The notes: generated by a model from the letters alone, not told the origin. A stretch of DNA of 42,520 nt from a bacterium (GCA_030611945.1 JAUWOV010000003.1:1-42520); one strand, 5' to 3'. Positions 3,238 to 33,819 are shown, counted from the stretch's first letter. Numbers and translations: made by a program.

Positions 3238-6193
<2,956 letters not shown>

Positions 6194-6199
6194 AATCTT

Positions 6200-6227
6200 A
6201 CTATACGGAATTATACATCTATGTCAA
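6200..6227 (-). promoter_or_regulatory. sigma70 promoter, probably leaderless, for HTH-recombinase
   Basis: TTGACA-N16-TATAGT, then 6 nt, then the ATG at 6193; no SD. Confidence 0.6.
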
Positions 6228-6403
6228 GTTTTTTCTTTTTGAAGCAAATATTGCGCTAAAAACATTTTTGATAAAGTTTCTATCCCTTTATAAAAAGAAT
6301 TTCTTGCTTCTTCCAGTTCTACTTCTGTTAATCCTTGTTCCTGAAGTATTATTTCTAATGCTTCCCAACCGCGCTTATTCTTTCTGTTTTCTTTCTTTTC
6401 CAA
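6224..6403 (-). CDS. Small helical hypothetical protein (59 aa, not in ORF track)
   Basis: TTG-start frame LEKKENRKNKRGWEALEIILQEQGLTEVELEEARNSFYKGIETLSKMFLAQYLLQKEKT fills the gap between co-oriented genes. Confidence 0.45.
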   Translation of the reverse strand: MEKKENRKNKRGWEALEIILQEQGLTEVELEEARNSFYKGIETLSKMFLAQYLLQKEKT

Positions 6404-6430
6404 TCATAGGCACCGCCCTCTTTGCAAAAT

Positions 6431-6625
6431 TCAGCTCTTGCCTGCCCTTTCCTTTAGTAATTCTCTTACCTTGCCCTCTGCCCCGCTTATACCCATCTCA
6501 TCAAGAATTAATTTTCTTAAAGGTCTAAATCTTTCTGGAGGAACAGATGCCTCTATATAAAGCAATATGCGATTTTTTGCCTCGTTATATACTTTGAAGA
6601 TTTTTTCCGGCAGATTATTCTCCAT
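6431..6625 (-). CDS. Small hypothetical protein
   Basis: Co-oriented ORF. KNRILL..EA.VP.ERF..LRKLILDE.G resembles small proteins I recall next to recombinases. Confidence 0.65.
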   Translation of the reverse strand: MENNLPEKIFKVYNEAKNRILLYIEASVPPERFRPLRKLILDEMGISGAEGKVRELLKERAGKS

Positions 6626-6709
6626 TATCTTTGCCTTTAAGCTAAATTAATTTTTAAATACTTATTGCTATTTTCCCTTATAACTGACTGTTGATCTTAG
6701 GTGTTTCAT

Positions 6710-7420
6710 CTATTTCTCTTCTTCTTCACTTTCACATTCATCTTTATTGTTTCCAAAAGGCAATTCTGAAGCATTTATATATTTCCATAACTCATCATGT
6801 GCTGCTAAAGCCATTGTGTCATCAAACTTTTTTCCGATATCGCCAAGTTTGTCATAGGTAATGCCTACGCCTCCAAGCCCGGATGCTGTAGATAACCTGG
6901 CTTTTTTTCTAAGCAGCGACAACCTGTCAAGTTCCGCTACTTCCGGAGATTTTCTCTTTTTTTCCACTTGCCTGTCTATCCACCCTTCCTCTGACTTTAA
7001 ATTTTCATACCTATCGTGGATTTTCCTGGCATTATCCGGAGGAGTAAGGTAACCAGCCAGAAATCTTTCCTCTTCCCATGACTCACTTTCCCCTTTTTTA
7101 ATTCTATTGGTAGCTCTTGTCATAGCCTCTCTGCTGCCCTTGATAATCTCGTGACTAGGATCATTTTCATCATAAGCTTCTGTCTCTGTTTTCTGTTTAT
7201 TGTAGACTGCATATATTCGCGGTAGATATTGCTCCAGTTCTTCATCAGACACTTCTTTTTTTTCTCTTTCTTTTTTAGCCTCTTCTGTCCATCTTACATC
7301 TGCATCATCGGCTTCAAGAGAAGATGTTGCTTCTAAATCAGTTTCTTCTTCAGACTCTGTAAATTCCTTTTCGTTTTCTTCCCGGCACTCATCAAAGCTA
7401 TCACTTTCTTCTTCTATCAC
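6710..7420 (-). CDS. Acidic hypothetical protein
   Basis: 236-aa Glu/Asp-rich ORF in operon orientation. Confidence 0.65.
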   Translation of the reverse strand: MIEEESDSFDECREENEKEFTESEEETDLEATSSLEADDADVRWTEEAKKEREKKEVSDEELEQYLPRIYAVYNKQKTETEAYDENDPSHEIIKGSREAMTRATNRIKKGESESWEEERFLAGYLTPPDNARKIHDRYENLKSEEGWIDRQVEKKRKSPEVAELDRLSLLRKKARLSTASGLGGVGITYDKLGDIGKKFDDTMALAAHDELWKYINASELPFGNNKDECESEEEEK

Positions 7421-7456
7421 TTTTTCAGCCCCTTTTAATCCAATATTTTCGCATTT

Positions 7457-7987
7457 TTACATCTCAGCTTTTTTAAATAATCGTATGACTTCCGGAGTGA
7501 ATATATATGGGTCTATTTCCTTTTCCTTAACACCGAGCCTTTTTGCTCTCTTAAACATAGCTTTTGCATCTCTGTCTAAATTTCCAGTGAGATATAAAAT
7601 TGAGCCTAAATAGAGACAAGCGTTTCCTGCTTCTATTCTTTTTAAATCCCCTGAAGTGATAGATTTTATTAAATAATCTTTTGAGCTTTTATAATCAAAA
7701 CCCCTGTATGCTGTTAGCCCTCTTTCCAGATAAACATGCCCATTAATTCTTGGAATGGTATTTGCATAATTTTTAACCTGTCTGGGCTTAGTTGATGGGC
7801 TTTCAACGGGTTTCATATTAACTACATCGTCCAGGATGTCAAAAACGGTTTCTGGTATAGTAAAAACAACTTCAGCAAAGTCATACAGTCCACGGGCAAA
7901 ATCACCTGAAGAGAATCTCGTATGAGCGCAGCCTGTGCTGCTGACAATAATCATGCTCAGCAGAATAATATTGATTTTTTTCTTCAT
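7457..7987 (-). CDS. Lipoprotein with TPR-like C-terminal domain
   Basis: MKKK, hydrophobic stretch and STGC lipobox; A.LYLG.I.Y..G....AKAMFKRA TPR-like helices. Confidence 0.7.
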   Translation of the reverse strand: MKKKINIILLSMIIVSSTGCAHTRFSSGDFARGLYDFAEVVFTIPETVFDILDDVVNMKPVESPSTKPRQVKNYANTIPRINGHVYLERGLTAYRGFDYKSSKDYLIKSITSGDLKRIEAGNACLYLGSILYLTGNLDRDAKAMFKRAKRLGVKEKEIDPYIFTPEVIRLFKKAEM

Positions 7988-8000
7988 AATAATCTCACCA

Positions 8001-8549
8001 CTAATTTAGCTTTTTAATTTGGTATTTACCTGTTTCACAATTAGCCATGACTTGATATTTTGTTCCACCAGTAAAATCATAGACAATTTCTACTTTTCTT
8101 AGCTGTGGATTAATAGGAGCAACTACTATTCTTCGCTTACCTGGCCTGACTTTTATTATATCTCGGGCTGGAGTATTAATTTTTCTTCTGCCAATCTTGG
8201 TAGAGCCAGCAGGATAGCTTCTTAAAACAAGATAAGAATAACGTGAACTCATATTAGATACATTGTTTCTGGAGGGAACAGTTTCTGCAATAGACCTGAC
8301 TCCCTGGCGATGATGTTTTCTTGCTCGACTTTCCGCTGAACCATAGCACTTAAGCACCATCATTATTGCAAAAATTATGGCTACTACCTTAACTGGCACA
8401 GGAACATTTTCAAGCCCATTATATGCCGGTGCTGGCTGCCTATGAACATGGTAATGCGGTTGCTCATATTGTATATCTGCGTCCCTATAACCAGCATCAT
8501 GTCTTCTTGCGCCTCTAGGATTTACAGGAATTGGATCTGGTATGGCCAT
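8001..8549 (-). CDS. Single-pass membrane protein with PEGA-like C-terminal domain
   Basis: TM segment VVAIIFAIMMVL; LVLRSYPAG...NTP....KVRPGKRRIVV is PEGA-like. Start 8549 has SD AGGAGTGA. Confidence 0.6.
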   Translation of the reverse strand: MAIPDPIPVNPRGARRHDAGYRDADIQYEQPHYHVHRQPAPAYNGLENVPVPVKVVAIIFAIMMVLKCYGSAESRARKHHRQGVRSIAETVPSRNNVSNMSSRYSYLVLRSYPAGSTKIGRRKINTPARDIIKVRPGKRRIVVAPINPQLRKVEIVYDFTGGTKYQVMANCETGKYQIKKLN

Positions 8550-9987
8550 TATCACTCCTATCAACTCCATCTATATCAGGAATTTTCTCTTTAATCTTAC
8601 TCATTAAAGGGGCCGCATTACCCAACCCTAAAAGACCATCTTGTGAGCAAATTGGGCACTCCATATTTTCATCAGATTGATCTATCTCCACAGCATCAAG
8701 TTTCCAATCTTTAAGCTCAGTATAAATTTTAACTGGCTGGCAACCAATGCTGGAACAAAATCTCATCATCATCCAGACAGCTAAAGAAGCTACATTCATA
8801 TTAAGAAAATATACTGCTGGCCGTGGTATATCAGCGCCATGAACATAGCCAGCTTGTGATAGAGCTTCTCTGCGTTTTTCCTGCAAAAGGTCTGTAACTG
8901 CATCCCAACTAGAAAATGAGCCCATACAACTTAAACAGTATTCAGCTCCCGGGATAATTTTGAAAATTTGTCCTGATATATATTCAGTTTTATTATTTTT
9001 AACCTGTATACCAGAGCCGCAGTCAAAATATGGAATTCCATGGGCTATAGCCAGTCTATTCATAATTAATCTTGGCCCAATTCTATCAACAGAACCAAAC
9101 AAAATATCTGCCTGTTTAACAGTTTCCTGGGCTTCAGGTTGGGATATATCAGACTGAATAGCTATGACATTAAGGTCAGGATTTACATTCCATAAATACC
9201 TTTTGAGGCAGTTGACCTTTGGAGTATGGTTAAGTGCGTCAAATCTCGTTGTCCCAGGCAATCTGTTCATATTTGAAAATTCAACAATATCAGGGTCAAC
9301 TATGATTAAAGTGGAGACCGGCAATCTAGCTAGCAGCTTACAAATAACAGCTCCCAATCCTCCGACACCAACCACGGCAACTGTTAGATTGTTATATATT
9401 TTCTGAGCTTTTTCCCCAAATGCCAGAATAGTCCTTGAATAAACATCTGCGTCAAAAGTAGTATTTTTAAGTGGAGAAGATGCCGGAATAATCATGTGCA
9501 TTTGTTCAGAGCTAAGCACCTTAATAATATCTACAGGCTGAACACCCTTGCAATTACTGGAGCAAATTCTGGCATCAAGTTTAGTAAAATCAGTGTTAGT
9601 TACAATACTAACAGCAGTTAATCCCTTAAATGTGCGCATGAGATAAGGGAATAATTTTTCTAGGTCATTCCCATCATCAATAAAACTGAAACAAGGAGAG
9701 ATGCTATTTACATGAGAATGGATCTTTATAAGATCTCTCTGTTCTGCAAGGCATTTAAGATAAATTTTTGTCATGAAATCTTTTGTTGGAGAGACAATAT
9801 ATGGGGAGCGTTTTCTGTAATCTTTTGGACCAGCTATCATAAGGTCTTTAACAATCAATCGATTATGATATGAGCTTGAGCTTCTTTCGGCAAATGCAAA
9901 AGCAAGGCTCTCTAAAGAAGATTCAGTTGAAAAAGCTTCCCGAAGTTTTTTGCATTCCTTTTCAAAAAATAAGATTTCTTTTTTCAT
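8515..9987 (-). CDS. JAB/MPN peptidase fused to ThiF/E1 adenylase (BubCD-like)
   Basis: N-terminal E...IHSH-x8-S-x2-D; C-terminal YSR, VVGVGGLG, DPDIVEFSNMNRL, KV, and Zn pairs CLSC and CPIC. Confidence 0.9.
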   Translation of the reverse strand: MKKEILFFEKECKKLREAFSTESSLESLAFAFAERSSSSYHNRLIVKDLMIAGPKDYRKRSPYIVSPTKDFMTKIYLKCLAEQRDLIKIHSHVNSISPCFSFIDDGNDLEKLFPYLMRTFKGLTAVSIVTNTDFTKLDARICSSNCKGVQPVDIIKVLSSEQMHMIIPASSPLKNTTFDADVYSRTILAFGEKAQKIYNNLTVAVVGVGGLGAVICKLLARLPVSTLIIVDPDIVEFSNMNRLPGTTRFDALNHTPKVNCLKRYLWNVNPDLNVIAIQSDISQPEAQETVKQADILFGSVDRIGPRLIMNRLAIAHGIPYFDCGSGIQVKNNKTEYISGQIFKIIPGAEYCLSCMGSFSSWDAVTDLLQEKRREALSQAGYVHGADIPRPAVYFLNMNVASLAVWMMMRFCSSIGCQPVKIYTELKDWKLDAVEIDQSDENMECPICSQDGLLGLGNAAPLMSKIKEKIPDIDGVDRSDNGHTRSNSCKS

Positions 9988-9996
9988 TTTGTCACC

Positions 9997-10425
9997 TCAT
10001 TTTGCAAAACGATTCATTCGCTGGTAAATAATATCAATCACTGTTAGTAAATTATCTCCAGAAATTACGTCCCTTCTGGGGTTCCATGTCTTAATATGAA
10101 TAGAAAGGTAAGCATAATTCTTATCTTCAAGATCATTAACACCGTCAGATTCAAAATAGTGTTCAGGTGTTCTCCCTGATGTAGTTCTTAACCGTTTGTC
10201 CACATAAAAACCATATGGCGCGGTCTCAAATCCGCTATCCAGCCCGGGCATTCTTATTAAAAGGTTGGAATAGGAAGGACGCCACCCTTTTGGCAAATTA
10301 AAATCCTTGATAAAAACCCAGGTATAAGTACTCTTGTCATATTTAATAAACTTGTCAGAAAAAACTCTTTGGACAAGTTCAATATTCTCGTGATACCACT
10401 TTCTTATAATATTATACGTAGCCAT
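9997..10425 (-). CDS. Prokaryotic E2/UBC-fold protein (family E-like) with no cysteine (BubB-like)
   Basis: WVFIKDFNLPKGW, LLIRMP, PYGFYV, YLSIH..TWNP..D...GDNLLT. There is no Cys in 142 aa. Confidence 0.85.
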   Translation of the reverse strand: MATYNIIRKWYHENIELVQRVFSDKFIKYDKSTYTWVFIKDFNLPKGWRPSYSNLLIRMPGLDSGFETAPYGFYVDKRLRTTSGRTPEHYFESDGVNDLEDKNYAYLSIHIKTWNPRRDVISGDNLLTVIDIIYQRMNRFAK

Positions 10426-10443
10426 TTTATGCCCTCCTTTAGA

Positions 10444-10471
10444 AAGGGAGAGAAGACATACTCTCTCCCTT
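10444..10471 (-). terminator. Intra-operon stem-loop between Ubl and E2
   Basis: 10-bp stem AAGGGAGAGA/TCTCTCCCTT with an 8-nt loop. Confidence 0.5.
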
Positions 10472-10487
10472 CCTCTATAAATTGAAA

Positions 10488-10715
10488 TTATCTACCGTCT
10501 TCCACAACTGGCTGGGTTTCAAATCTTTCTCCTGGTTGGACTTGGATTCTCGCATTTTTGTAAATAAGTTTGTTAGTGCCGTCAGGATTTACCCGAACCA
10601 AATCTTTACCAGAACCCTGATTTATGGCGTTTAAGATTCCTCCCCCAGTTATTGTAGAAGGTACTGTGACTGAACGACCAGCAACATTGATGGTTCTTGT
10701 AACGTCTTTTCCCAT
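10488..10715 (-). CDS. Ubiquitin-like beta-grasp protein (BubA/multi-ubiquitin-like), C-terminus EDG-R
   Basis: TINVAGRSVTV...ITGGGIL...LVRV.PDG...IQVQPGERFET pattern; penultimate Gly; directly upstream of E2 and JAB-E1. Confidence 0.85.
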   Translation of the reverse strand: MGKDVTRTINVAGRSVTVPSTITGGGILNAINQGSGKDLVRVNPDGTNKLIYKNARIQVQPGERFETQPVVEDGR

Positions 10716-10822
10716 TTTTACTCACCTCTCTTTCCGCAGCCAAGATGTTTTGTTTTAAACATCTTTCACTACTTGCCTTTTAGATAAGGCCTTTTTATAT
10801 AACTTAATAGCTCTTTGAAATC

Positions 10823-10906
10823 CTATCTCTTTAGAAGCTTAATAACCCCTACAAGAGCGATTAACAGCAAAGCAAGCTTTGTAATCTGAAAAATTTCAGG
10901 ACTCAT
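10823..10906 (-). CDS. 27-aa hydrophobic peptide (not in ORF track)
   Basis: MSPEIFQITKLALLLIALVGVIKLLKR with a GAGGA SD. Confidence 0.5.
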   Translation of the reverse strand: MSPEIFQITKLALLLIALVGVIKLLKR

Positions 10907-10922
10907 ATCTTTATCCTCTATA

Positions 10923-11945
10923 TTAAACGATGCTGCCATCTTCTTTACTCTTCCCTTCTAAGCGATCTCTCCATTTAGAAGGCGATAAACTAATGGAATG
11001 TTTTCGCCAAGAACTCGCAATGCCGATGTCGTATCCATAAGTTACCGTTATCTTGATAATATCTTTATCTCTAAATTGTGGATATCCATTCAAAATAACC
11101 CTAGCAACCTGTTCTGCTTTTGTTTCAAGAACAACAGGTTCCTGTTTGTAGAAAACATTAGCGCTGATATAACTACTAATACCTTTTGGGGTAATAGCTT
11201 TGTCAACAATTACATAAGCGAATGACACATTCTCCATTTTATACAGATGTCTTTGAAGGTTTTGAGGAATAAAGGTCTCTGTGAACGCTTTTTTTGATAT
11301 CAATCTAGGAACTATATCTACACAAAATGCTAGAACACATATAAGAGTTATTGCAAGAAAACCCAGTGAGCGATCAATCGGATTAACTGTAATAGGATCC
11401 ACTGTATCTGTTTTCACAACATATGTCTTACAAACTACATCATGAAGAAATTGTCTAGTGCTACCGGAATAAAAACTGATAATAATTAAACCAATACCAA
11501 AAGCGAATAATTGAATAGCTGTTCTTATTAGTGTTATCAATGATGATGGTGGTAACATAATTCCGGTAAGAAAGAATGGCAGTGTTAATATAGTAGTGCG
11601 GAGTAATGAGGTTCTAAAGGGAATATACTCACCAGTATAGCCTACGACACAAATTTTGGTTATTTTTTTGCCAATGCTTTGACCTTTCCCAAAGCGACTG
11701 TTTAAAAGCCCAAAATAACCTAAACTAATTGCAAATCCGAACAAGCGTCCCCACCCACCTATCTGAGCCAACTGTTTACCAAACAAAAATCCAAGGAATA
11801 TTCCCACAACACCTAAAAATATCCCATCAAGAAATAAAGCTAATATACGCTTCCAAAACCCGCAAATTGGAGAATCTCTTTTCACTCTTTTAACTTTTAA
11901 AGGGGCACCCGATGCTATCTGGCTTAATTGAATATTATTTGTCAT
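10923..11945 (-). CDS. RDD-family membrane protein
   Basis: GFWKRILALFLDG, GQSIGKK...I.VV, SLLR, RQFLHD....TYVV. Confidence 0.9.
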   Translation of the reverse strand: MTNNIQLSQIASGAPLKVKRVKRDSPICGFWKRILALFLDGIFLGVVGIFLGFLFGKQLAQIGGWGRLFGFAISLGYFGLLNSRFGKGQSIGKKITKICVVGYTGEYIPFRTSLLRTTILTLPFFLTGIMLPPSSLITLIRTAIQLFAFGIGLIIISFYSGSTRQFLHDVVCKTYVVKTDTVDPITVNPIDRSLGFLAITLICVLAFCVDIVPRLISKKAFTETFIPQNLQRHLYKMENVSFAYVIVDKAITPKGISSYISANVFYKQEPVVLETKAEQVARVILNGYPQFRDKDIIKITVTYGYDIGIASSWRKHSISLSPSKWRDRLEGKSKEDGSIV

Positions 11946-11947
11946 TG

Positions 11948-12784
11948 TTAAAATCCTTTCTTTTTATTATCTTCATAAACAAGGTTTTTATATTCATATA
12001 TTTCTTTGAAATCACATTGCATTACATGCCACAAAAGACAGATTGTGATTCTATGGTCAGGATTTTTATCAATATTATCTGAAAAGTTTTTCTGAACTAA
12101 TTTTAAAGATTTAGTATCAAGACATACAATTACAACCCGTTCATACCCTGCGAATAAATTTTTAATTGCCTGCATGTATTCAGTGTTCTCCGTAGAAAGC
12201 ATAACCTCAATTGAGACCTTTCTATTATTTTCAGGATCTATTACCTTAACATCCACCTTTTTGCCATTTATATCTCCCTCTACGGTTGTATTGAAGTTTC
12301 TGTCCTGAAGTCTTTTAGCTATTAAATTCTGAATAAAGCGATGCTGTAAGCTTCTTCCTCCTCTGCCAGAATCAGTAGCAGGTAGAAGCTGGGCTTTAAT
12401 GCGACCTTTTGCAGTTAGAAAGTAAAATTTGGTCTTTCTACCGCGAGCAGATAGCTGCAAATCAAGGTTTTTAGTAAATCCATCAGCTACGAGTTTTTCA
12501 AAGATAACAATACCACGATCCATGCTAAGAGTCTCAATCCCAGCCAGTGTAATTGATTTACATCTTTCAGCTACCCCAAAGAAAGGCCTTTGATTGAAAT
12601 CTTTTAGAACAGCTTTTTCTAAATCGCTTTCAACCTCAACTATTCTTGGAGCGCGAACACTCCACGCCTGCCTTGGCACAATTGGTGATAGTTTTTTAAG
12701 TATTTCTTTATTATTTTTTATCATTTCTTCTTTGCTAATTTTAGGCAATGGAAACAAGTTAACTTTCAATTGGATATCCCCCAA
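11948..12784 (-). pseudogene. C-terminal half (wHTH + PD-(D/E)XK, Replic_Relax-like) of an ATPase-nuclease gene split by a 22-bp insertion
   Basis: FYFLTAKG, QH, VE, VDV and SIEV motifs. It becomes in frame with the upstream ATPase when 22 bp of 12761-12790 are removed. Confidence 0.7.
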
Positions 12785-14111
12785 CTTTCATTAAAAACGG
12801 CTTCGTATATCTGTCTGCGAGCTTTGTAACACACACGAATTGAGGTAGATGTGCTAAGCTAATAGTTTGTTCTGATGTTAAAAACATCGATTGTTTAACA
12901 GCCCAGATATCCTCAGTATTAAATAAGTGAAATGCAAAATATGAAAAAACGTTTGACTGGTATGAATTTGCAAGAGCAGATGGGTTTGTTGTTCCTACCA
13001 TGCATCCGATGCCTGAAAAACGGACCTGGCTCTGCAATTCAAGAATTGGTTTAGTTGCCTTGTCATTTGTAAATATATGTCCGCCTTCATCAAAAACAAA
13101 TACTTGTCTTAGTTCATCAATATAATTAAAAGCATCGCTTTGAAGGTCTGTATATGCCTGATTTAAAGATTGCGTTTCTATTAATAACTCATGTTTATTT
13201 GATACAGAAAAAGTTTCAATTATAAGGCTTATGCCTTTTCGGGCTAATTCTCCTGGTATAATTCCTTTGCAGCAATCAAATGAAACAGCCAAGGGAGACT
13301 CTAGAATTCCATTTGAGATAGAAAGTTGCGAACTCTTTAAATCCTTTCGTATTGATAATCCTGGAGGCATTTTCATAAACTGAAGTTCTTTATTGATTTC
13401 ATATTCCGAAAAATAGATATCCTTTTTTGGATCACACAATGACAAAAGGTTGTTTATAGCTTGATTGAACAAAATCTGTGAATCATGCCTTTCAAAAATC
13501 CTTGCTCTATAGTCAGACCTGCGTGATAGATATGCCATTCTGTTGCAGTTTTTTGGCCATCCATTAAAATTTAAAAATTTATCAATCCCAATTTTCATAA
13601 TTAGAACCCTGTCTGGAAACAGCTTTTGTAATCCAGAGAACTGGCCGCCTTTACGGTCAAATATAACTACAGAAATGGATTTTTGAATCAGTTTTTCTAA
13701 TATAGAGATCAGAAGGCTTGTCTTGCCACATCCTGTAATCCCTGCAACGCAAAAATGTTTTGTGAACTCTGAAAGCTTGAGCATTACAGGAATATTGCCC
13801 TCAAGAGTTCTGCCAACTTCAATATCGCCCTCAGAGATTCCGCTATTTGCGTCAGGTTCAGGCCTATAAGGCTTTCTGTAATCATATTCATTTTTATTCT
13901 CTTTTCGCTTATCAAGAAAATAATTTACCCTGGCTTTACAATTAATATAAATATTTCTGTCTACTCCTGGAAAATTCGGATTTTTCAAAATTAATGCCAT
14001 TCTGCGGATGCCATCATCCTTGTGCTCAAGCCCTTCCTCTTCAATTTGTTTTAGCAAGTTATCTCTCATTTTCGGAGTGATAGTTATTTCGTTTCTGTTA
14101 TAGAGCGCCAT
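12759..14111 (-). CDS. HerA/VirD4-like (DUF87) ATPase, N-terminal half of the split gene
   Basis: HFCVAGITGCGKT (Walker A), IFDRKG, FVFDEG (Walker B), R.SGIG..VGT.NP. Start 14111 has a GAGGA SD. Confidence 0.85.
   Translation of the reverse strand: MALYNRNEITITPKMRDNLLKQIEEEGLEHKDDGIRRMALILKNPNFPGVDRNIYINCKARVNYFLDKRKENKNEYDYRKPYRPEPDANSGISEGDIEVGRTLEGNIPVMLKLSEFTKHFCVAGITGCGKTSLLISILEKLIQKSISVVIFDRKGGQFSGLQKLFPDRVLIMKIGIDKFLNFNGWPKNCNRMAYLSRRSDYRARIFERHDSQILFNQAINNLLSLCDPKKDIYFSEYEINKELQFMKMPPGLSIRKDLKSSQLSISNGILESPLAVSFDCCKGIIPGELARKGISLIIETFSVSNKHELLIETQSLNQAYTDLQSDAFNYIDELRQVFVFDEGGHIFTNDKATKPILELQSQVRFSGIGCMVGTTNPSALANSYQSNVFSYFAFHLFNTEDIWAVKQSMFLTSEQTISLAHLPQFVCVTKLADRYTKPFLMKVGGYPIES
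12761..12790. repeat. 8-bp direct repeat flanking 14 bp (transposon footprint-like)
   Basis: AACTTTCA-ATTGGATATCCCCC-AACTTTCA. Confidence 0.75.
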
Positions 14112-14655
14112 TTTCGTAATCCTCATTATGTTGGTTAAAATCGTTAACTTCCTGTGTATTATGTCCCAGTGGAGACGCTAACATATTAAATGCCCAGCAG
14201 AATGGTGCAGTAAGAACTCGTTTAGAAAGCTCAATAAGCCAACAATGACGGCAATACCGCACTTTTTCATGTACTTGAGACGATTGAGTTGTGCCATTTC
14301 TAAGAGTTTTCTCAACCGTTCTAATTCTTCCAGTTTCCTCTTCATATCCCAAATGACCTATATAATAGAGGTGCTTGCACCGCGAACACTGGAATCCATC
14401 TTTTAAACGATTAATTTGTTTGTCCATGTGACAGAAAAAAATCTTTTCACCGGCTTCTAGCTCGACACCAGACTCTGTAATAGTTGAATCTATAGTCTGA
14501 TAATTCTCTATACCATTATCTGAGTTGGCTTTTTTTGAAATATCTTCTCGGCGGTAAGTCACGCCTGAGTCTAAATCAAAGCCTTTTATTCTTTTTTCTC
14601 TAATGTTTGAGCTAATAATGTCTTCAGAATTAGACATATTTGTTGACCGAGTCAT
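14098..14655 (-). CDS. Hypothetical protein with CxxC motifs
   Basis: CSRC and CRHC; GGAGGAG SD before ATG 14655. Confidence 0.7.
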   Translation of the reverse strand: MTRSTNMSNSEDIISSNIREKRIKGFDLDSGVTYRREDISKKANSDNGIENYQTIDSTITESGVELEAGEKIFFCHMDKQINRLKDGFQCSRCKHLYYIGHLGYEEETGRIRTVEKTLRNGTTQSSQVHEKVRYCRHCWLIELSKRVLTAPFCWAFNMLASPLGHNTQEVNDFNQHNEDYENGAL

Positions 14656-14657
14656 TT

Positions 14658-14981
14658 TTATTCTCCTCCTCTCCATATTATTCTATAAATAATGAGTACG
14701 ATTATGGTATTTACAATAATACCCATGACTAAAATGAGCGATGTGATTTCATTAGATACCCGGAATATAGAATCAAAGGAATTGGCGTACAATGCTGCGA
14801 AAAAAATCCCAAGCATAATTCCAAACAGAGAACCTATAATAGAACTGGTTATTGTAACTCTTCTGATAAATCCAGTTAAAATACCAATTACAAAGGCGAA
14901 TGCACCTAAGAAAGCCAGTAGATGTATTAGGTAATTTAATATTTGGGATACAATTTTTGTTCCCGGAAAATCAAAAAACAT
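14658..14981 (-). CDS. Small 3-TM membrane protein
   Basis: Three hydrophobic segments; AAGGAG SD. Confidence 0.75.
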   Translation of the reverse strand: MFFDFPGTKIVSQILNYLIHLLAFLGAFAFVIGILTGFIRRVTITSSIIGSLFGIMLGIFFAALYANSFDSIFRVSNEITSLILVMGIIVNTIIVLIIYRIIWRGGE

Positions 14982-15054
14982 ATTTCTCCTTTCCTTTCAA
15001 TTAAGGCAGTCTCAGAGGCCAGAGCCAGAAAACTCCAGCCCCTGACTGCTGTAC

Positions 15055-15423
15055 CTACTTTACTCGTAGAAACCGGGAAATTTTTAGTCTCTCTTCCCCT
15101 TCAAACGTATCCAGTTTTGTGCGAACGCGCAGCTGGCTTCCTATTAGTTTCGTTGCGATTTTTACATCACTCTTGTTGCAAGCTTCAAGGAATTCCTTGT
15201 ACCGCCATTTGCTGTTTTTCAACAAAGAAATGGTGGCTATTATCAATTTGCCTGCACTAACTCCATCCATGACGCGGAGTGTGTATACATGTACAGGTTC
15301 TTTCTGTGCAGAAGTACGGCATTTTATATTAACAACTTCTACATGATAGTTTCCTGCTATAACAACAAGCTGGCTAGATGACTCTACTCCCTCTAGGTTC
15401 GGAATCGCATACTGTTTATTCAT
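15055..15423 (-). CDS. DUF669-like (phage ssDNA-binding-like) protein
   Basis: AGNYHVEV...G...GK.I...WRYKEFLEAC...LIGSQLRV....FEGEER.KI.RF pattern; GGAGGTGA SD. Confidence 0.7.
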   Translation of the reverse strand: MNKQYAIPNLEGVESSSQLVVIAGNYHVEVVNIKCRTSAQKEPVHVYTLRVMDGVSAGKLIIATISLLKNSKWRYKEFLEACNKSDVKIATKLIGSQLRVRTKLDTFEGEERLKISRFLRVK

Positions 15424-15451
15424 TTTTTTCTCACCTCCTCTTTTTTTGGTT

Positions 15452-15778
15452 TTATAGTGCTTTTAGCTTTAAAGGACTCTTAAAAAGTAAAAGTTGATTA
15501 AGTTCGTCTTTTTTAAACATCCTTTGTCTTTTACGTTGCTTCTTGTCAGGTTTTTTGATAGATGGTTTATTTTCTTGGCATCTGTTTAATTTATCTGATT
15601 GTAATGAGATCTTTTCAAAACACTGTGAGCAAAGGGCTTTTTCTTTATCAATATAAATTCCCAGGTTCTTTCCGCACAGAAAACAATAAGAACAGGCTTT
15701 ACCATCAGTGATTTTAATAACTTTAGCATTAAAGAAATTTTTAATCATCTCAACAGAGTCAGCAGGAGAAATATTCAT
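15452..15778 (-). CDS. Zn-finger hypothetical protein
   Basis: CFLCG...LCSQC. Confidence 0.65.
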   Translation of the reverse strand: MNISPADSVEMIKNFFNAKVIKITDGKACSYCFLCGKNLGIYIDKEKALCSQCFEKISLQSDKLNRCQENKPSIKKPDKKQRKRQRMFKKDELNQLLLFKSPLKLKAL

Positions 15779-16645
15779 TTAAAACCCTCCACTAAACGGT
15801 TCTGTCATTTCAGGTGGTTCTTCAGGAAAAGGCTGTTCAAATCCTGGTTCATCCGCCATAATAGATTCAAGATTTTGTCCATGAGGGGTTAAATTCCCAG
15901 AATCCTGAAACTCCATATCAGTATTACCTATTTCTCCTGCTAAATTATTCTCTTCTCTGTTATTTACATCTGGTTCTTCTATTTCATGTTCTTTTAAGGA
16001 TTCTCCCTCTAAAGTTTCATTACTGTCTTTTTCAATAGGACAATCCAGCTGCTGATGCAATTCATCGCTATAAAGATTTGTACCTTTGGTATAATTTTTT
16101 TCTTTATTGACAGCCTGCTCAGTTGTCTCTCTGTCATCAACTTGTCTGACTGCTTCTTCCAGCGCTTGTTCTTCACTAGCATATACAATGTCTTCAATCG
16201 CTTTTCTTATTTCCTTCTCTTCTCCGCTATATATAATCTGTTCAATTAGCTCTTTTATCTCTCTTTTTTCCGGTTCATACTGGATATTATCAACCGCTTT
16301 GAATAACTTCTTTTTAATTTCGCTTACTTGTAATTTTTTATCCTCTGGGTATGCTTCATTCTCGTTTCCTTTGTTGATAAAATCTTCTCGCTCAGTCCTT
16401 TGTTTAATAATTTCCTTTAATTTAGCAAGAGTTTTTTCTGCAAAAAAAGCACTCCAATTTGAAGAGTACTTTGGGGGATACTCCACATCCTTATCTCTAA
16501 TAACAGGAGGACATCTCCTTGGTAAAGGTGTTTTTATTACCCTAAAATTATCTCTGCTGATATGTGATTTATTTCTATAAGGGCTTTTTTGAGATGTTTC
16601 CTGGTCGTAGAGGCTTGCATTATAGTTTTCACTGTATGGATACAT
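15779..16645 (-). CDS. Acidic, largely disordered hypothetical protein
   Basis: 288-aa ORF with AAGGAG SD and short internal E/K repeats. Confidence 0.7.
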   Translation of the reverse strand: MYPYSENYNASLYDQETSQKSPYRNKSHISRDNFRVIKTPLPRRCPPVIRDKDVEYPPKYSSNWSAFFAEKTLAKLKEIIKQRTEREDFINKGNENEAYPEDKKLQVSEIKKKLFKAVDNIQYEPEKREIKELIEQIIYSGEEKEIRKAIEDIVYASEEQALEEAVRQVDDRETTEQAVNKEKNYTKGTNLYSDELHQQLDCPIEKDSNETLEGESLKEHEIEEPDVNNREENNLAGEIGNTDMEFQDSGNLTPHGQNLESIMADEPGFEQPFPEEPPEMTEPFSGGF

Positions 16646-16684
16646 GGCTATAGTCTCCTTTTATTTTCACAACAGAATCGTTTC

Positions 16685-17482
16685 CTAAACATCCATTCCT
16701 ATCTCAGTTAGGCTTTCAATTTCCAATATCTTTTTGAACGAATCTTTCCATCTAATCAACGGTTCATCTTTTAATATCTTATAGTAATACCGCACACTAT
16801 CTGGATGTTTTGCCTTCATAGCTTTCTTAAGAAATTTATATTCAACAGTACCCCATCCATCTTTATTTACTCTCTGTTTATGTTTATTTAGTGCTCCAAG
16901 CCATATACTATCTGTCGCATATGGCTTAAGCAGGTTAAATAATTTTACAGCGTGGATATCTAACAACGGTTCACAAGAAACAGATGTTTTATATCCTTTG
17001 GAATAGGCAAGCATTAGCGAAGTGTACCTTTCCTGAAAATTTGGAGCTCCTGGTTCCCAAAATTTCAATACATTATTGCTGTAAGAGCCAATGGTAAACC
17101 TAAATAGTATCTGTTCTTTGTAATCCTTCAATTTTCCGCAGAGACTAGCAATACATTCAAGATGGGGCTTACTTACAATGAGAACTTTATTGCCAGGCTT
17201 GAGAATTTTATCAAGAAAGACAATACTTTTATCAAGGATTGAGGGTGTGATATCATGTGTGGTGGGGAACATTATAGTTCCATTTTTATTGCTATAATGT
17301 TTAGGAACGCAATCATGTTTTAGTTCCATGTTTAACCAGTCATCGGCAGTCTTAATTCTTTTGAAGCGTAAAGCCATATGTTTGGCATAACAGTACCTGC
17401 AATTATGTTCACATCCGCGAGCGATATTTGCATTAATTGATGTCCATTCTTTTGTTCCTGTGGGTTTTGGTTTATTTTCCAT
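16685..17482 (-). CDS. Radical SAM protein, DUF5131 (Gp37/Gp68)/SPL-like
   Basis: W...N...GCEHNCRYCYA (CxxxCxxC) and SVSCEPLL. Confidence 0.85.
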   Translation of the reverse strand: MENKPKPTGTKEWTSINANIARGCEHNCRYCYAKHMALRFKRIKTADDWLNMELKHDCVPKHYSNKNGTIMFPTTHDITPSILDKSIVFLDKILKPGNKVLIVSKPHLECIASLCGKLKDYKEQILFRFTIGSYSNNVLKFWEPGAPNFQERYTSLMLAYSKGYKTSVSCEPLLDIHAVKLFNLLKPYATDSIWLGALNKHKQRVNKDGWGTVEYKFLKKAMKAKHPDSVRYYYKILKDEPLIRWKDSFKKILEIESLTEIGMDV

Positions 17483-17511
17483 TTCTTTCTCCTAAAGGAG
17501 CTCAATAACTT

Positions 17512-17580
17512 TTATGAGTTCCTGTTATTTTTTTTATTTACTTTCTTAACTATATTTTGACATTTTGGACATCTCTTCAT
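17512..17580 (-). CDS. Putative 22-aa leader peptide
   Basis: MKRCPKCQNIVKKVNKKNNRNS with an AAGGAG SD; lies between the sigma54 promoter and the first long gene. Confidence 0.35.
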   Translation of the reverse strand: MKRCPKCQNIVKKVNKKNNRNS

Positions 17581-17639
17581 TGCGAGCTCCTTTTTTATTG
17601 GCATTTTTTTATCTATTATTTTTTCTAATTCTTATAAGC

Positions 17640-17656
17640 AGCAATTTCTATACCAA
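17640..17656 (-). promoter_or_regulatory. sigma54 (-24/-12) promoter
   Basis: TTGGTATAGAAATTGCT has exact GG-N10-GC spacing and points into the long operon. Confidence 0.8.
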
Positions 17657-17766
17657 GGTTGAAAACTTTTTTTTGTAATTCTTCATAACTATGTCGTTGA
17701 TAAGGGATTACGAAATCTTTATTAGGTTAAAAACTTTAAAAAAGCCAATCAAACTAATCAATTAAA

Positions 17767-17813
17767 TATCTAATTTTTTAGATAAAATTAAAGTAAAAGT
17801 CCAATTTTTTGGA
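17767..17813. promoter_or_regulatory. Two palindromic upstream activator sequences
   Basis: TATCTAA-TTTT-TTAGATA (17767-17784) and TCCAA-TTTT-TTGGA (17800-17813), with centres 31 bp apart. Confidence 0.65.
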
Positions 17814-17860
17814 GTCACTGATAGAAAGATTTAAAACATCCAGAAAAACTCTTATTCCTT

Positions 17861-18553
17861 ATGGAACTTGAGATTAAACTTAAACAAAAGCACAAAGAAG
17901 ATTTTTTAAAAGAAGGTTTACCTAGACTACTTTATACTGGAACTTGTGAAGAATATTTTCAACAGAAGATATTAAAGGAAAAATTTGATAACCAATCAGG
18001 CAGACACAGTGGTATCGTTTATATGAGTGATTCCTTTGTTTCGGCTACGGGCTATGCGATAAAGAGAGCTGCTTTTTACAAAGATCTTCCCTTGCTGTTA
18101 ATCATTGATACTAAAAAATTGGATGAAAAAGTTGAATATAGTGGTGAATATAGTACATCGTCTTTGAATGCAAATTGTTTTTTAACTTATGCGCTTTCTT
18201 TGGGTATTGATTCTTATGAAGGATTAAAAGTGCGTTTTAAAGACAATTTACAGAAAGATATTAAGTGTATTAAAGATACAGTCTCACGTCTGTCTAAAAA
18301 AGAAATTGAAAGTTATTGGAAAGATTATAGTTATGGTTTAAAAGAAGGAACTTATTTGCCTCAAAGTTATGCTCCTTGTTTTTTTGCTGTCGCTAATAAA
18401 AGGATTCTATATTCAAATAATCAACGAGAACTTATTAATGGAGTTCAAATATTAAAAGGCAAAAAGGTTATAACTCCATTCTTTTTATTGGACAAGTTTG
18501 ATGATAAAGTTATTGTTATGAATATGGACTATACTAAAGTCTTTAAGTCTTAA
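17861..18553 (+). CDS. Hypothetical protein with ADP-ribosyltransferase-like (KptA/Tpt1-type) N-terminal domain
   Basis: LYTGT...IVYMS....ATGYA...LLLIID resembles LYHGT...VYLS...A..YA...L.ID. Confidence 0.5.
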   Translation: MELEIKLKQKHKEDFLKEGLPRLLYTGTCEEYFQQKILKEKFDNQSGRHSGIVYMSDSFVSATGYAIKRAAFYKDLPLLLIIDTKKLDEKVEYSGEYSTSSLNANCFLTYALSLGIDSYEGLKVRFKDNLQKDIKCIKDTVSRLSKKEIESYWKDYSYGLKEGTYLPQSYAPCFFAVANKRILYSNNQRELINGVQILKGKKVITPFFLLDKFDDKVIVMNMDYTKVFKS

Positions 18554-20330
18554 TTTTGGGAAACAAATTCTTTATGTCTTCCTGTAAATTATACTTTCTT
18601 AAATTATTGTAAAATGTATTTTGCTTCATATCTAATAATTTCGCCGCAGCTGTTCTATTTCCCTTAGTTTGTCGTAAAGCATTTAATATCGTATTTTTGA
18701 CTGCGTCCTTTATGCTTATTTGTTCTCTATTAGAGATCGTATCTTTACAATGTTCTAACATTAGGTCTTCCTCTCTAATAATCCTTCCTTCTGCAAGAAT
18801 AACTGCCCTTTCAATAGTATTCTCCAGTTCTCTTGTATTCCCATTCCAATCATGTAGTAATAATTTATTTTTGGCTTCTTGTGCTAAAGCTTCTTCCCAA
18901 TAATAGGATTTATTACCGTACTTTTCTAAAAAATGGTTTACTAAGAAATAAATATCTTCCCTTTGCTCACGCAATGGTGGAATTTTAATTGGAAATTTAT
19001 TTAATCGATAAAATAAATCTGGTCGAAAAGTTCCTGTTTTAATAGCATCTTTTAAATCTATATTTGTAGCTGCGATGACTCTAACATCTATCTCTATGGT
19101 ATCCTCTCCTCCCACTCTTTTAAACTCTTTTTCCTGAAGAATTCTCAAAAGCATTGCTTGGGCTGGTAGACTCATATCTCCTATTTCATCTAAGAATATT
19201 GTTCCTCCATCTGCCAATTCAAACATGCCTTTTCTTCTCGACGCAGCATCAGTAAAAGCCCCTTTTTCATGTCCAAATAATTCGCTCTCAATTAACGTTT
19301 CTGGGATTGCTGCACAGTTAACTCCGATAAATTGTCCTTCCTTTTTTACGCTATTATAATGGATAGCTTTTGCTATAGATTCTTTACCTGTTCCGCTCTC
19401 GCCTTGAATGAATACAGCTATATCTTCTTTTTCAAGAGTTCTAAGTAAAACAATTATTTCCTTAATAGCATCACTCTCGCCAATAATATTGATAACTTTA
19501 TTCTTTCCAATAATAATATGTTTATACTTATCGCTTCTTTTAGGTTCTTTTTTTAAATTTTCTATTTTCATATATATTCTATCTAATTCTCTATCTTTAT
19601 TAAGTTCTTTTTTACGCTCTATTTCTTCTATGTTTTTTTGAGTCGTACTTTCACTACTTTTTTTATCTTGCTCAACATCTACGGCTAAGCGAGGAGCTTT
19701 TTCTAAATGTATTTTTTCGCTTTTTCTCTCCTTTTTGCCATAAGGCACAACCATAGGATAACATCCTTCTGAAGTTTTTGTCGGGTCACTATCAGAAACT
19801 GCTTTAAGAACAAGCTGATATTCACCTTCAGGGATTAAAGTTCTCTCTTCTGGCAGGTTACATATCACTTCAATATCTACTTCATCCTGAATGCCCGTTG
19901 GATAGATTTTCAGTGAATTCTTAATATTATGAATTGTACTATCGCGTGATATTGGTCTTGTTATATCTATATCAGGCCATTTGTCAGTAACATTTTCTTT
20001 CCGCTTCCCGGCAATAACATTGTAAACTTTTGCATACACGCTAAACGAATCTTTCTCTTTTCCTGTATTTTTTATAGTAAACCTGTATTTCCATCTTTTA
20101 TTATGTGTATTATTATCGTCGAATACTTCTGGGCCTTTACCAGTAAATTGAGGGACAATGACAGCTACTGAAAATTCTGTACCTGCTCGTTCTATTTTTT
20201 CTTCACATAATTTTATCTTTTCTTCTAGCTCTCTTTGCACGTTCTCAGGATTTTCAGGATTTAAAAGTTCTGTGAAGAGTTCTTTAGCAATCTTGTATCT
20301 TTTTATCTTTTGCTCTTTTGTTTCTTGCAT
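18543..20330 (-). CDS. sigma54-dependent enhancer-binding activator (Ig-like N-terminal domain, AAA+, Fis HTH)
   Basis: GESGTGKE, ESELFGHEKGAFTDA, IFLDEIG, FRPDLFYRL, GNTRELEN and GNRTAAAKLL. Confidence 0.95.
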   Translation of the reverse strand: MQETKEQKIKRYKIAKELFTELLNPENPENVQRELEEKIKLCEEKIERAGTEFSVAVIVPQFTGKGPEVFDDNNTHNKRWKYRFTIKNTGKEKDSFSVYAKVYNVIAGKRKENVTDKWPDIDITRPISRDSTIHNIKNSLKIYPTGIQDEVDIEVICNLPEERTLIPEGEYQLVLKAVSDSDPTKTSEGCYPMVVPYGKKERKSEKIHLEKAPRLAVDVEQDKKSSESTTQKNIEEIERKKELNKDRELDRIYMKIENLKKEPKRSDKYKHIIIGKNKVINIIGESDAIKEIIVLLRTLEKEDIAVFIQGESGTGKESIAKAIHYNSVKKEGQFIGVNCAAIPETLIESELFGHEKGAFTDAASRRKGMFELADGGTIFLDEIGDMSLPAQAMLLRILQEKEFKRVGGEDTIEIDVRVIAATNIDLKDAIKTGTFRPDLFYRLNKFPIKIPPLREQREDIYFLVNHFLEKYGNKSYYWEEALAQEAKNKLLLHDWNGNTRELENTIERAVILAEGRIIREEDLMLEHCKDTISNREQISIKDAVKNTILNALRQTKGNRTAAAKLLDMKQNTFYNNLRKYNLQEDIKNLFPKIKT

Positions 20331-20364
20331 CTTTATTTCTCCATTTCTCCTGCAACTGTTTTTG

Positions 20365-20420
20365 ATTTTACCACATTTCTTTAAAAAATCAATTGACTAA
20401 GATGGATAAAGCAGGATAAT
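20365..20420. promoter_or_regulatory. Back-to-back sigma70 promoters for the activator and NACHT genes
   Basis: Minus: TTGATT-N16-TAAAAT with extended TG. Plus: TTGACT-N16-GATAAT. The -35 boxes abut in the palindrome TCAATTGA. Confidence 0.5.
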
Positions 20421-20448
20421 CTATATGAGAGCAAAAAGGCCAATATAG

Positions 20449-33535: not shown

Positions 33536-33593
33536 GATTTTTTCTTTTTTTGGGAAAAAATCTTTTCTCTATAAATATGTGAGGTGTACTAAA

Positions 33594-33806
33594 ATGGTAA
33601 AATTTAGAATTTTAGATGACAAAGGCGATACTGTGTTGGAACTGCAACCAGAGGAAACAATGGAAAAGATGAGGCAGGAGGCAGAAAGAGGCAGATGGCT
33701 CTATCTTAACGGCGAGGTTGTGAATATAGACCACGTTACTATGGAAGACATTAATAAAGCAAATGAAATAGTTTCAACACCAATGCTGAAAGGGGGTTCT
33801 TTATAG
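33594..33806 (+). CDS. Ubiquitin-like (ThiS/SAMP-type) protein ending GG-SL
   Basis: 70 aa; WLYLNGE.V...I..TPMLKGG is a ThiS/MoaD-like pattern; GAGGTG SD before ATG 33594. Confidence 0.8.
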   Translation: MVKFRILDDKGDTVLELQPEETMEKMRQEAERGRWLYLNGEVVNIDHVTMEDINKANEIVSTPMLKGGSL

Positions 33807-33819
33807 AACCCTTTTAAAA

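Follow-up and report, generated by a model that had tools for sequence, protein, structure and literature searches.

Sigma-54 switches that carry their own dedicated bacterial enhancer-binding protein (bEBP), with expression gated tightly by a signal, are known from XylR/Pu of the TOL plasmid, RtcR-rtcBA and PspF-PspA; PspF illustrates control of a bEBP in trans, through a partner protein. MalT and AfsR are STAND activators in which repeat sensor domains couple ligand sensing to transcription activation. Here we describe a locus that resembles both kinds of system in part, on a bacterial stretch of 42,520 nucleotides (GCA_030611945.1 JAUWOV010000003.1:1-42520), called the window throughout; it is the whole 42.5-kb contig C15 of a 1.66-Mb genome in 119 contigs that is 90.9% complete. 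On an integrative element in this window, we hold it moderately probable that a self-contained sigma-54 switch with its own bEBP drives a run of co-oriented genes including a ubiquitin-like (Ubl) conjugation cassette close to Bub, with a NACHT/HEAT protein pair as its candidate input. All results are computational (sequence, statistics, homology, synteny and predicted structures). The window's own genome is designated G000 (contigs C15, C73, C88, C111 and C116), and G005 and G006 are congeners.

Like XylR/Pu, RtcR and PspF, the locus combines a -24/-12 promoter, upstream inverted repeats and an adjacent activator with AAA+ and Fis-type helix-turn-helix (HTH) domains. It differs from them in that the N-terminal 280 residues of the activator contain no Pfam domain, that the proposed partner is a NACHT STAND protein, and that the target is a Ubl-conjugation operon on an integrative element. 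As in MalT and AfsR, a STAND NTPase with repeats would lead from sensing to transcription. However, those activators have the DNA-binding domain fused to the NTPase and act with sigma-70, whereas here NACHT, HEAT and activator are three proteins and the output would be through sigma-54.

For the conjugation cassette, the nearest described system is Type I Bub (Citrobacter BubAB-BubCD-BubE). Both have a fused JAB/JAMM-E1 protein, alike in the arrangement of its active site and with a crossover-loop Tyr, an E2 without a catalytic Cys, and a Ubl whose C-terminal Gly needs cleavage for exposure. In contrast to Bub, with its BubAB fusion, the Ubl and E2 of the window are unfused, the gene after the E1 encodes an IP-x-N membrane protein in place of DUF6527/BubE, and most relatives of the E2 retain Cys at the catalytic position. 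The accessible parts of PMC11601596 and 10.1101/2024.11.21.623966 report CapW/BrxR or CapH+CapP, DNA-damage-type repressors, as Bub-associated regulators and name no known targets; here the regulator is a sigma-54 bEBP. As described in the same parts of these sources, Type I/II Bil (BilABCD) shares with the window separate Ubl and E2 genes and the presence of a JAB peptidase and an E1, but has a stand-alone JAB (BilC) and a larger IAD-AAD-CYS E1 with thioester chemistry, unlike the JAB fused to a single ThiF/adenylation domain seen here. The window JAB-E1 best matches Bub, not Bil.

A candidate sigma-54 promoter, paired palindromes and a bEBP gene in one region

The candidate promoter, TGGTATAGAAATTGCT, is the sole exact match to the sigma-54 consensus TGGYAYN5TTGCW in the window, with GG at 17654-17653 and GC at 17642-17641 at 10-nt spacing; setting the GC as -13/-12 gives a predicted start at ~17629. 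Allowing up to one mismatch, the window contains 10 sites versus 5.8 expected, which is no enrichment, so only the exact match carries weight. The intergenic region around it measures 378 bp, the bEBP gene is 0.9 kb away, and the chance of a correctly oriented exact match in a region of that size is ~6e-4 (arithmetic from base composition). Genome-wide there are 20 exact sites, 9 of which fall within long same-strand open reading frames (ORFs) and so are probably not promoters. Two further host bEBP genes have an exact consensus 1.2-1.4 kb downstream (C73:19915 and C116:8719), and these intergenic sites, TTGGCAT/TTGGCAC-N5-TTGCT, are close to the TTGGTAT-N5-TTGCT of the window.

Upstream of the promoter are the palindromes TCTAAAAAATTAGA (17769-17782) and TCCAAAAAATTGGA (17800-17813), whose centers are 31 bp apart, at ~-146 and ~-177 from the predicted start. 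They are borne by a 23-nt direct repeat with 78% identity and 31-nt spacing. Inverted repeats of 14 bp phased by three helical turns at these distances fit the upstream activating sequences (UAS) of NtrC- and NifA-type activators, and we consider the pair a candidate enhancer for the HTH_8 domain of the bEBP. With at most one mismatch, the palindrome pattern occurs three times in the window (0.59 expected), a number attained in 1 of 100 shuffles. In the whole 1.66-Mb genome, TCYAA-W4-TTRGA was found twice, both times at this locus.

The bEBP is laid out as a helical hairpin (residues ~1-50), a beta-sandwich (~60-194), a linker helix, an AAA+ core with a GAFTDA motif beginning at residue 357, and HTH_8. 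Its core is 44-47% identical to host NtrC-type bEBPs, the host having six bEBP genes, one other of which encodes GSFTDA; models for RtcR, PspF and NifA match the AAA+ core below their own cut-offs. GAFTDA is also present in Desulfovibrio vulgaris DVU2106, a variant judged activation-compatible in the accessible part of PMC4641369. The host rpoN gene is on contig C111 (PF04552, 190.1 bits) in a 484-aa open frame without stops. From the gene layout, the bEBP gene is not co-transcribed with the operon: a plus-strand ORF of 230 aa intervenes, and the bEBP gene has its own sigma-70-like promoter (Table 1).

An earlier note on this DNA, made from the sequence by itself, had proposed a GG-N10-GC promoter at 17640-17656, two TCYAA-TTTT-TTRGA palindromes 31 bp apart at about -146 and -177, and a GAFTDA activator close by, together forming the canonical enhancer/bEBP/sigma-54 geometry. 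The promoter, as the only exact consensus match of the window, the palindromes and the activator, with its Sigma54_activat and HTH_8 matches, were all recovered, and both sequence and statistics support the geometry; host rpoN, which the note had named as a check, is present and intact.

The 230-aa ORF between enhancer and bEBP has zero Pfam or PHROG matches. In ESM Atlas features, it falls with DUF3990, DUF4433 and DarT-like clusters, scoring 0.92-0.93 on a basis of under 170 features in common; as a lead only, it is possibly ADP-ribosyltransferase-like. No Shine-Dalgarno (SD) sequence precedes its ATG.

A run of 17 genes downstream of the promoter

From 17482 to 6431, 17 minus-strand ORFs follow one another, overlapping or separated by gaps of no more than 107 nt, most junctions overlapping or being shorter than 40 nt. 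The interior of the run is enriched neither in sigma-70-like sites (54 versus 56.6 expected) nor in terminator-like sites (10 versus 9.8). The unbroken co-oriented run of about 11 kb claimed by the earlier note is thus present. Its "leading on" to the integrase holds only partly, since a sigma-70-like promoter intervenes.

Within the leader, 17494-17593 (minus strand) contains a perfect 10-bp inverted repeat, AAAGGAGCTC / GAGCTCCTTT (100% complementary), whose stem pairs the SD region of a short leader ORF with sequence just 5' of the SD of the first gene. The leader fold has a z of -2.04, and equally good folds arose in 6 of 200 shuffles; zero Rfam families reach the gathering score in the window. 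We also observed a 15-nt direct repeat, TTTTTTCTAATTCTT / TTTTTTGTAATTCTT (plus strand, 93% identity, 17619-17633 and 17669-17683), which flanks the sigma-54 promoter with its copies 50 nt apart and may be the site of a second factor or a chance occurrence in AT-rich DNA.

The front genes of the run (15452..17482) have a phrog_13321 match (E 3.7e-15); the radical-SAM-like gene among them has a CxxxCxxC motif, with Radical_SAM at 27.1 bits, under the cut-off. Behind them is an 11-gene core: DUF669, transmembrane (TM), Cys-rich, HerA/FtsK-type ATPase, winged HTH (wHTH) partner, 27-aa peptide, Ubl, E2, JAB-E1, IPxN and lipoprotein. NCBIfam matches of the ATPase to CedD, HerA, CedB and TraD span the P-loop only. 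The 27-codon peptide gene occupies a 207-nt "gap" 5' of the Ubl gene. The IP-x-N membrane protein has no Pfam match, and an ORF of this kind follows JAB-E1 also in the related loci L004, L005, L006/7, L009, L011 and L014. At the end of the run, the acidic 236-aa protein and the 64-aa ORF have no Pfam match.

Two functions for the operon appear about equally likely from its content. It may be a defense or stress module: the operon encodes a HerA-type ATPase together with a Bub-like pathway, genes for TIR, NACHT and Fic proteins lie close by, and sigma-54 control without leakage would fit so costly a response. It may equally be a transfer or late operon, with a translocase-like ATPase, DUF669, many small proteins of the membrane and a backbone that the G005 element has as well.

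Table 1. Features of the window discussed in the text
Feature	Position	Strand	Remarks
Attachment core, 18 bp, in miaB codons 25-30 (TFGCQM)	4324..4341	minus	repeated at C88:4699-4716 with 1 mismatch
Large serine recombinase (integrase)	4323..6011	minus	Resolvase, Recombinase and Zn_ribbon_recom domains
MerR/HTH_17 excisionase-like gene, 67 aa	5990..6193	minus	overlaps integrase start; MerR_1 E 3.2e-11, HTH_17 E 1.1e-6
Sigma-70-like promoter TTGACA-16-TATAGT	6200..6227	minus	ahead of xis-like and int genes; 11/12, best of 16.6-kb scan
Acidic 236-aa protein (6710-7420) and 64-aa ORF (6431-6625)	6431..7420	minus	last genes of run; 87-89% aa identical in G005
Lipoprotein-like protein, 176 aa	7457..7987	minus	signal peptide and Cys; 29% to L004, 77% to G005
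Membrane protein with N-terminal IP-x-N motif, TM helix, beta-rich C-terminus	8001..8570	minus	conserved fourth gene of cassette; 33% to L004
JAB/JAMM + E1 adenylation fusion, 490 aa	8515..9987	minus	BubCD-like; ThiF 120.8 bits
E2-like protein	9997..10425	minus	BubB-like; Prok-E2_E 28 bits (cut-off 25)
Ubl, 75 aa, ending ...EDG-R	10488..10715	minus	aligned with nine Ubl-position ORFs from related loci
Small membrane-peptide gene, 27 codons	10823..10906	minus	27-codon counterpart at same position in L004
RDD-family membrane protein	10923..11945	minus	RDD 61.6 bits; no L004 counterpart
HerA/FtsK-type P-loop ATPase (12759-14126) and 278-aa partner (11948-12784)	11948..14126	minus	DUF87 52.5 bits
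Cys-rich 192-aa, TM 107-aa and DUF669 proteins	14098..15423	minus	DUF669 24.9 bits (cut-off 21); 36-45% to L004
First three genes: radical-SAM/DUF5131-like (16685-17482), acidic 288 aa, Zn-ribbon-like 108 aa	15452..17482	minus	
Leader ORF, 22 codons (MKRCPKCQ...; MKRCPKCQNIVKK...)	17512..17580	minus	good SD; within 147-nt leader
Sigma-54 promoter TGGTAT-N5-TTGCT	17655-17640	minus	exact consensus match; predicted start ~17629
Two 23-nt repeats, each with 14-bp palindrome	17760..17813		candidate UAS for bEBP
ORF of 230 aa between enhancer and bEBP	17861..18553	plus	convergent with bEBP
bEBP, 595 aa	18543..20330	minus	Sigma54_activat (PF00158) 233.6 bits, AAA_lid_14, HTH_8 31.6 bits
Sigma-70-like promoter of bEBP, TTGATT-16-TAAAAT	20365..20392	minus	9/12, TG extension
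NACHT NTPase (20449-21939) and overlapping HEAT-repeat protein (21932-23635)	20449..23635	plus	divergent from bEBP; candidate sensor
Fic cargo	28331-29566	plus	
DUF932 cargo	29669-30532	plus	
TIR_2-domain cargo	35412-35786	minus	
IS481-like cargo	41087-41836	minus	

The proposed switch is local to this locus, the gene module is conserved

The sole syntenic relative compared gene by gene is L004, a metagenomic contig encoding a 51% identical JAB-E1. It keeps the core gene order from DUF669 to the lipoprotein at 29-54% amino acid identity and is without the radical-SAM, acidic, Zn-ribbon and RDD genes. The window ATPase and its 278-aa partner are 54% and 49% identical to L004, where they are fused as a 712-aa protein with a weak PadR-like wHTH match. 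A switch that belongs to the gene set as such is not supported: L004 has no sigma-54 consensus at up to one mismatch (12.5 kb; within 10 kb upstream) and no bEBP, and an exact sigma-54 consensus or bEBP AAA+ domain was found in 0 of 33 related JAB-E1 loci (398,684 bp). In addition, the regulatory block (230-aa ORF, bEBP and NACHT) has 30-31% GC versus 34-39% in the operon, a mosaic junction that is maybe recent. These observations count against the proposed switch. Since the switch is absent from relatives and its GC differs, comparison of these loci indicates that it is a local acquisition ahead of a conserved module and is not ancestral to that module. Taken together, the predicted sigma-54 switch is well supported in silico and unique to this locus among the relatives compared. 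In L004, an upstream 192-aa protein has Sigma70_r2/r4 matches below the Pfam cut-offs, which we note only as a lead to a possible extracytoplasmic function (ECF)-like sigma factor.

A prophage origin was considered and dropped. Single-protein scans of viral contigs with JAB-E1, HerA, radical-SAM, P0013 and P0016 found zero relatives, and no capsid, portal or terminase family was detected in Pfam or PHROGs; the sole match of phage-structural type is a P-loop-only match of the HerA-like ATPase to a terminase PHROG.

Alternative explanations for promoter and palindromes

Some features of the region count against a bEBP-driven switch. The promoter carries T, not C, as the fourth base of TGGCAC; the genome-wide palindrome count of 2 equals the composition expectation (~2.0), so that the signal is the adjacency of the palindromes in one intergenic region and not their number; and the divergent 230-aa ORF begins ~50 bp beyond the distal palindrome, which could hence be its operator. 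One alternative is that the sigma-54-like motif arose by chance in AT-rich intergenic DNA, with the run constitutive or under other factors. The 20 exact genome matches, 9 of them inside long same-strand ORFs, and the unenriched window count at up to one mismatch (10 versus 5.8) leave room for such an accident, but the low chance for the 378-bp region, and the fact that the motif occurs together with a bEBP gene and a palindrome pair unique in the genome, in a host that has rpoN, make it very improbable. We regard as distinctly unlikely that the palindromes are operators of the 230-aa ORF or another regulator, the bEBP acting elsewhere and the GG-N10-GC element being idle or used with another enhancer. 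This would agree with the distal palindrome overlapping a possible TTGGAG -35 element ahead of the 230-aa ORF, with the pairing of a hairpin regulator with a NACHT gene, not an operon, in G006 (see below), and with the differing GC of regulatory block and operon. However, phased 14-bp inverted repeats at -146/-177 fit bEBP enhancers, the bEBP has HTH_8, the window offers no second exact sigma-54 site, and this type of palindrome is found nowhere else in the genome.

A further alternative accepts the promoter and limits its reach: sigma-54 would drive the front genes alone, from radical-SAM to RDD, and the Ubl cassette and envelope genes would be expressed from internal sigma-70-type promoters, which would place Ubl conjugation outside the switch. 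Immediately 5' of the Ubl gene is the longest non-coding interval of the run (107 nt, 10716-10822), with two short hairpins, the conserved core exists in L004 without a sigma-54 element, and several 9-10/12 sigma-70-like matches are present on the minus strand inside the run. Yet such matches are no commoner than in shuffled sequence, neither hairpin is followed by a minus-strand T-run, the equivalent spacer in L004 is ~25 nt with no conserved promoter element evident, and most junctions of the run are tight or overlapping. On these grounds a divided operon seems unlikely, and we retain the reading in which the sigma-54 switch drives the whole run.

A NACHT/HEAT pair as candidate input

Divergent from the bEBP gene are two overlapping genes in which a STAND architecture is split: a NACHT protein (29.5 bits, cut-off 26.7) and, on the next ORF, HEAT repeats (HEAT-ARM_XIII, E 4e-27). 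The N-terminal region of the bEBP has few relatives. A k-mer search with residues 1-280 returned only the self-match, ESM Atlas gave nothing usable, and no relative of the whole region emerged when 1.84 billion representatives were scanned in full with HMMER. That scan returned four other proteins. In three of them (260, 252 and 464 aa) the similarity is confined to residues 1-49/62 (84%, 82% and 60% identity), with complete divergence afterwards; the fourth, of 2693 aa, has an Ig-like repeat match. A weaker member of the hairpin group is a 501-aa protein of G006, encoded divergently from a NACHT homologue (N-terminal 200 residues, 26%, E 2e-12), which is the same arrangement as that of bEBP and NACHT in the window.

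Complex prediction for NACHT (496 aa) with hairpin residues 1-62 gave a score of 0.71 (median of three runs), the best control reaching 0.00. Of 80 solved complexes, 58 attained that score, as did 2 of 110 mismatched pairs; because the NACHT-hairpin prediction used its own 5-row alignment, these counts apply only roughly. The runs agreed in at least 96% of contacts, with a partner predicted local distance difference test (pLDDT) of at least 78. The predicted interface joins NACHT residues 21-70, the part conserved in G006, to hairpin residues 3-45, with L18, F19 and L22 among the predicted contacts; 14 of the 21 hairpin interface residues are invariant in the alignment, an agreement that is not independent because the model used the same alignment. 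This prediction supports a putative binding of NACHT to the hairpin and suggests that the split STAND pair of NACHT and HEAT gates the bEBP.

Against this input stands that the link to NACHT consists of two genomic contexts and one in-silico model. The bEBP N-terminal region is absent from congeners, bar the weak hairpin match in G006 (genus and 32 other genomes searched). The model of the N-domain is of low confidence (pLDDT 59.5), with a hairpin at 5-48, a beta-sandwich at 60-194 and a linker helix; only generic Ig-like/adhesin matches were found (query TM <0.31), and nothing beyond "beta-sandwich" is read from the fold. In G006, contig C83 (9.7 kb) has no window-like operon by the hairpin regulator and no exact sigma-54 site. 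NACHT residues 1-150 had only three marginal matches against 401 genomes (E 0.005-0.008). We offer as a tentative and rather doubtful proposal the full chain in which the NACHT/HEAT sensor docks on the ~50-residue hairpin and so switches on the 11-kb operon with its HerA/FtsK-type ATPase and Bub-like core, the hairpin being a portable input module found also at the head of regulators whose output domains differ (P0013, P0014, P0016 and the 501-aa protein of G006). Among the papers listed by keyword searches of the literature, none tied NACHT proteins or Bub/Bil operons to sigma-54.

The Ubl cassette is a variant close to Bub

The best PDB match of JAB-E1 is Citrobacter BubCD (9ea4, E 3e-25, residues 42-461). 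Residues E26, H90, H92, S101, D104 and Y381 are invariant across JAB-E1 and its four closest relatives (alignment A1). Y381 aligns with the Tyr numbered Y370 in BubCD, the residue that forms the E1 oxyester according to the accessible part of PMC11601596. Relatives matching over most of the length number three among 5.8 billion clusters, at 63% (P0003), 51% (on L004) and 28%.

For the E2, a 12-sequence profile against the PDB matched Citrobacter BubB alone (E 5.5e-4). An AlphaFold model (pLDDT 88.9) gave BubB as the top Foldseek match (9eae_C, TM 0.64/0.70), the sole match at E ≤0.001. The window E2 has no Cys at all, and Ser108 occupies the L[C/S][I/L]H position as LSIH. The Ubl profile gave weak matches to multi-ubiquitin 9d59 (E 0.0039), 9cd2 (E 0.034) and SAMP2 (E 0.04), with spurious repeat-protein matches ranking higher. 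A C-terminal Gly is present in 9 of the 10 aligned Ubls, the window's own included; among the related ORFs, 8 of 9 have a terminal ..KG, in some cases followed by a short tail, the exception being L004, which ends in ..IDA. A 62-nt spacer separates the Ubl ORF from the E2 ORF, and the two are unfused as well in the 10 related loci in which the Ubl ORF was read.

Two points tell against the proposed Bub-like pathway. Of the 12 E2-family sequences aligned, 9 have Cys at the catalytic position and 3, including that of the window, have Ser, so that Ser108 could mark an inactive E2; and DUF6527/BubE (PF20137) was not found in the 90.9%-complete genome, in a search in which the Caulobacter positive control matched. 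The cassette is therefore a sister group to Bub; within this group either both chemistries may occur or the window copy is inactive. By sequence and predicted structure, the window encodes a new variant of Ubl system near Bub; an unfused variant may already be in Table S1 of PMC11601596 / 10.1101/2024.11.21.623966. The claim in the earlier note that the run includes a Ubl cassette was confirmed by the presence of Ubl, E2 and JAB/E1. Its remark that the combination was not recognized as a described system holds only in part, as the cassette itself falls near the described Bub (6E/DUF6527) pathways.

A second minimal Ubl triad lies at 33525-35015 (plus strand), with a 93-aa protein ending ...LKGGSL, a 121-aa JAB, an 85-aa ORF and a 199-aa ThiF-like E1. 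The 121-aa protein has weak PADLOC JAB matches and an HSHIH motif, and the 199-aa protein has weak E1-E2 matches.

Proposed mechanism and significance

From these sequence features, homologies and synteny, we infer the binding, activation, operon continuity, chemistry and signal of the following model. An element of at least 38 kb, inserted by its serine recombinase in miaB codons 25-30, would carry the switch. The bEBP would be made from its own sigma-70-type promoter, and its Fis-type HTH would, as dimers, occupy the pair of 23-nt repeats centered near -146 and -177. NACHT, through its N-terminal domain, would bind the bEBP hairpin, and STAND oligomerization would drive or license bEBP ring assembly. 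Once released from control, the AAA+ ring would use its GAFTDA loops to open the sigma-54 holoenzyme at TGGTAT-N5-TTGCT, and transcription would proceed from ~17629 through 17 ORFs to ~6431. The JAB domain would then trim the terminal Arg of the Ubl, exposing Gly74, after which the E1 would adenylate the Ubl; transfer would pass via oxyesters on Tyr381 (E1) and Ser108 (E2), as in Citrobacter Bub, to targets possibly at the envelope. The excision genes (xis-like and int) would be expressed from a separate sigma-70-type promoter.

For the regulation of Bub pathways, an unfused, BubE-less cassette behind a zero-leak sigma-54 promoter would, if true, suggest strict gating. Docking of NACHT on the hairpin would be a new mode of bEBP control. 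It would also be a new output for a prokaryotic protein like the NOD-like receptors (NLRs), namely transcription rather than a fused killing effector. The whole would amount to a bacterial "NLR to inducible transcription to ubiquitin-like tagging" circuit on a mobile element. Promoter, bEBP and NACHT/HEAT could be rebuilt in an rpoN-positive host, which offers a simple experimental handle.

The integrative element, its miaB site and other cargo

The mobile-element setting assumed by the earlier note is supported by the 18-bp attachment core in miaB and by the related element that a congener carries there. Homology to six congeners ends at 4341-4344, inside the miaB 5' end. Contig C88 bears the congener-type miaB upstream flank, including the native start ATGAAAGTC..., then the core (4699-4716, within the stretch C88:4680-4716) and then unrelated DNA. 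The element thus spans at least window positions 4342-42520 (at least 38 kb) and continues on C88. At window 4324-4413 it supplies a replacement 24-codon miaB N-terminus, so that miaB stays open at 391 aa with a congener-like C-terminus, a case that illustrates a serine-integrase element rebuilding the miaB 5' end upon insertion. The integrase ORF crosses the core and stops 1 nt beyond it, and its C-terminal tail would change upon excision.

The earlier note had envisaged a program linking DNA processing, Ubl conjugation, envelope proteins and perhaps excision. The Ubl-E2-JAB/E1 content of this program stands; excision is probably not part of the operon, because a strong sigma-70-like promoter of their own precedes the xis-like and int genes. 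No minus-strand terminator-like site was found between 6200 and 6700, and read-through into xis-like/int is possible.

The congener with the related element is G005 (C182; loci L124, L126 and L134), which encodes an integrase and an xis-like protein at 95% and 97% amino acid identity together with the 64-aa ORF, the acidic protein and the lipoprotein. In place of the Bub cassette it has a vWA gene, and at the IPxN position a J-domain-like/TM/PEGA-like protein with a different N-terminus.

Other cargo comprises Fic, DUF932, an N6-methylase fragment, a TIR_2 protein (E 9e-19) and an IS481-like transposase. The last is near the contig end and may be the reason for the assembly break. The miaB-like gene of the genus (window 3238-4413) is 377-405 aa long and has UPF0004 and Radical_SAM with no TRAM match, in the window and apparently in seven matching congeners. 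Paralogous proteins of ~96-121 aa with the pattern KKF[KR]AxxI[ST]AA[VI]WE ... YKDK[DE]G[EQ][WF] are encoded at window 37738-38097 and at L004 596-886 and 4789-5154; without a Pfam match, they look like single-stranded DNA-binding proteins. For window DNA (11500-21000 looked up), a cold-seep metagenome DNA run is the sole run listed, and no RNA run; the DNA run is possibly the source sample.

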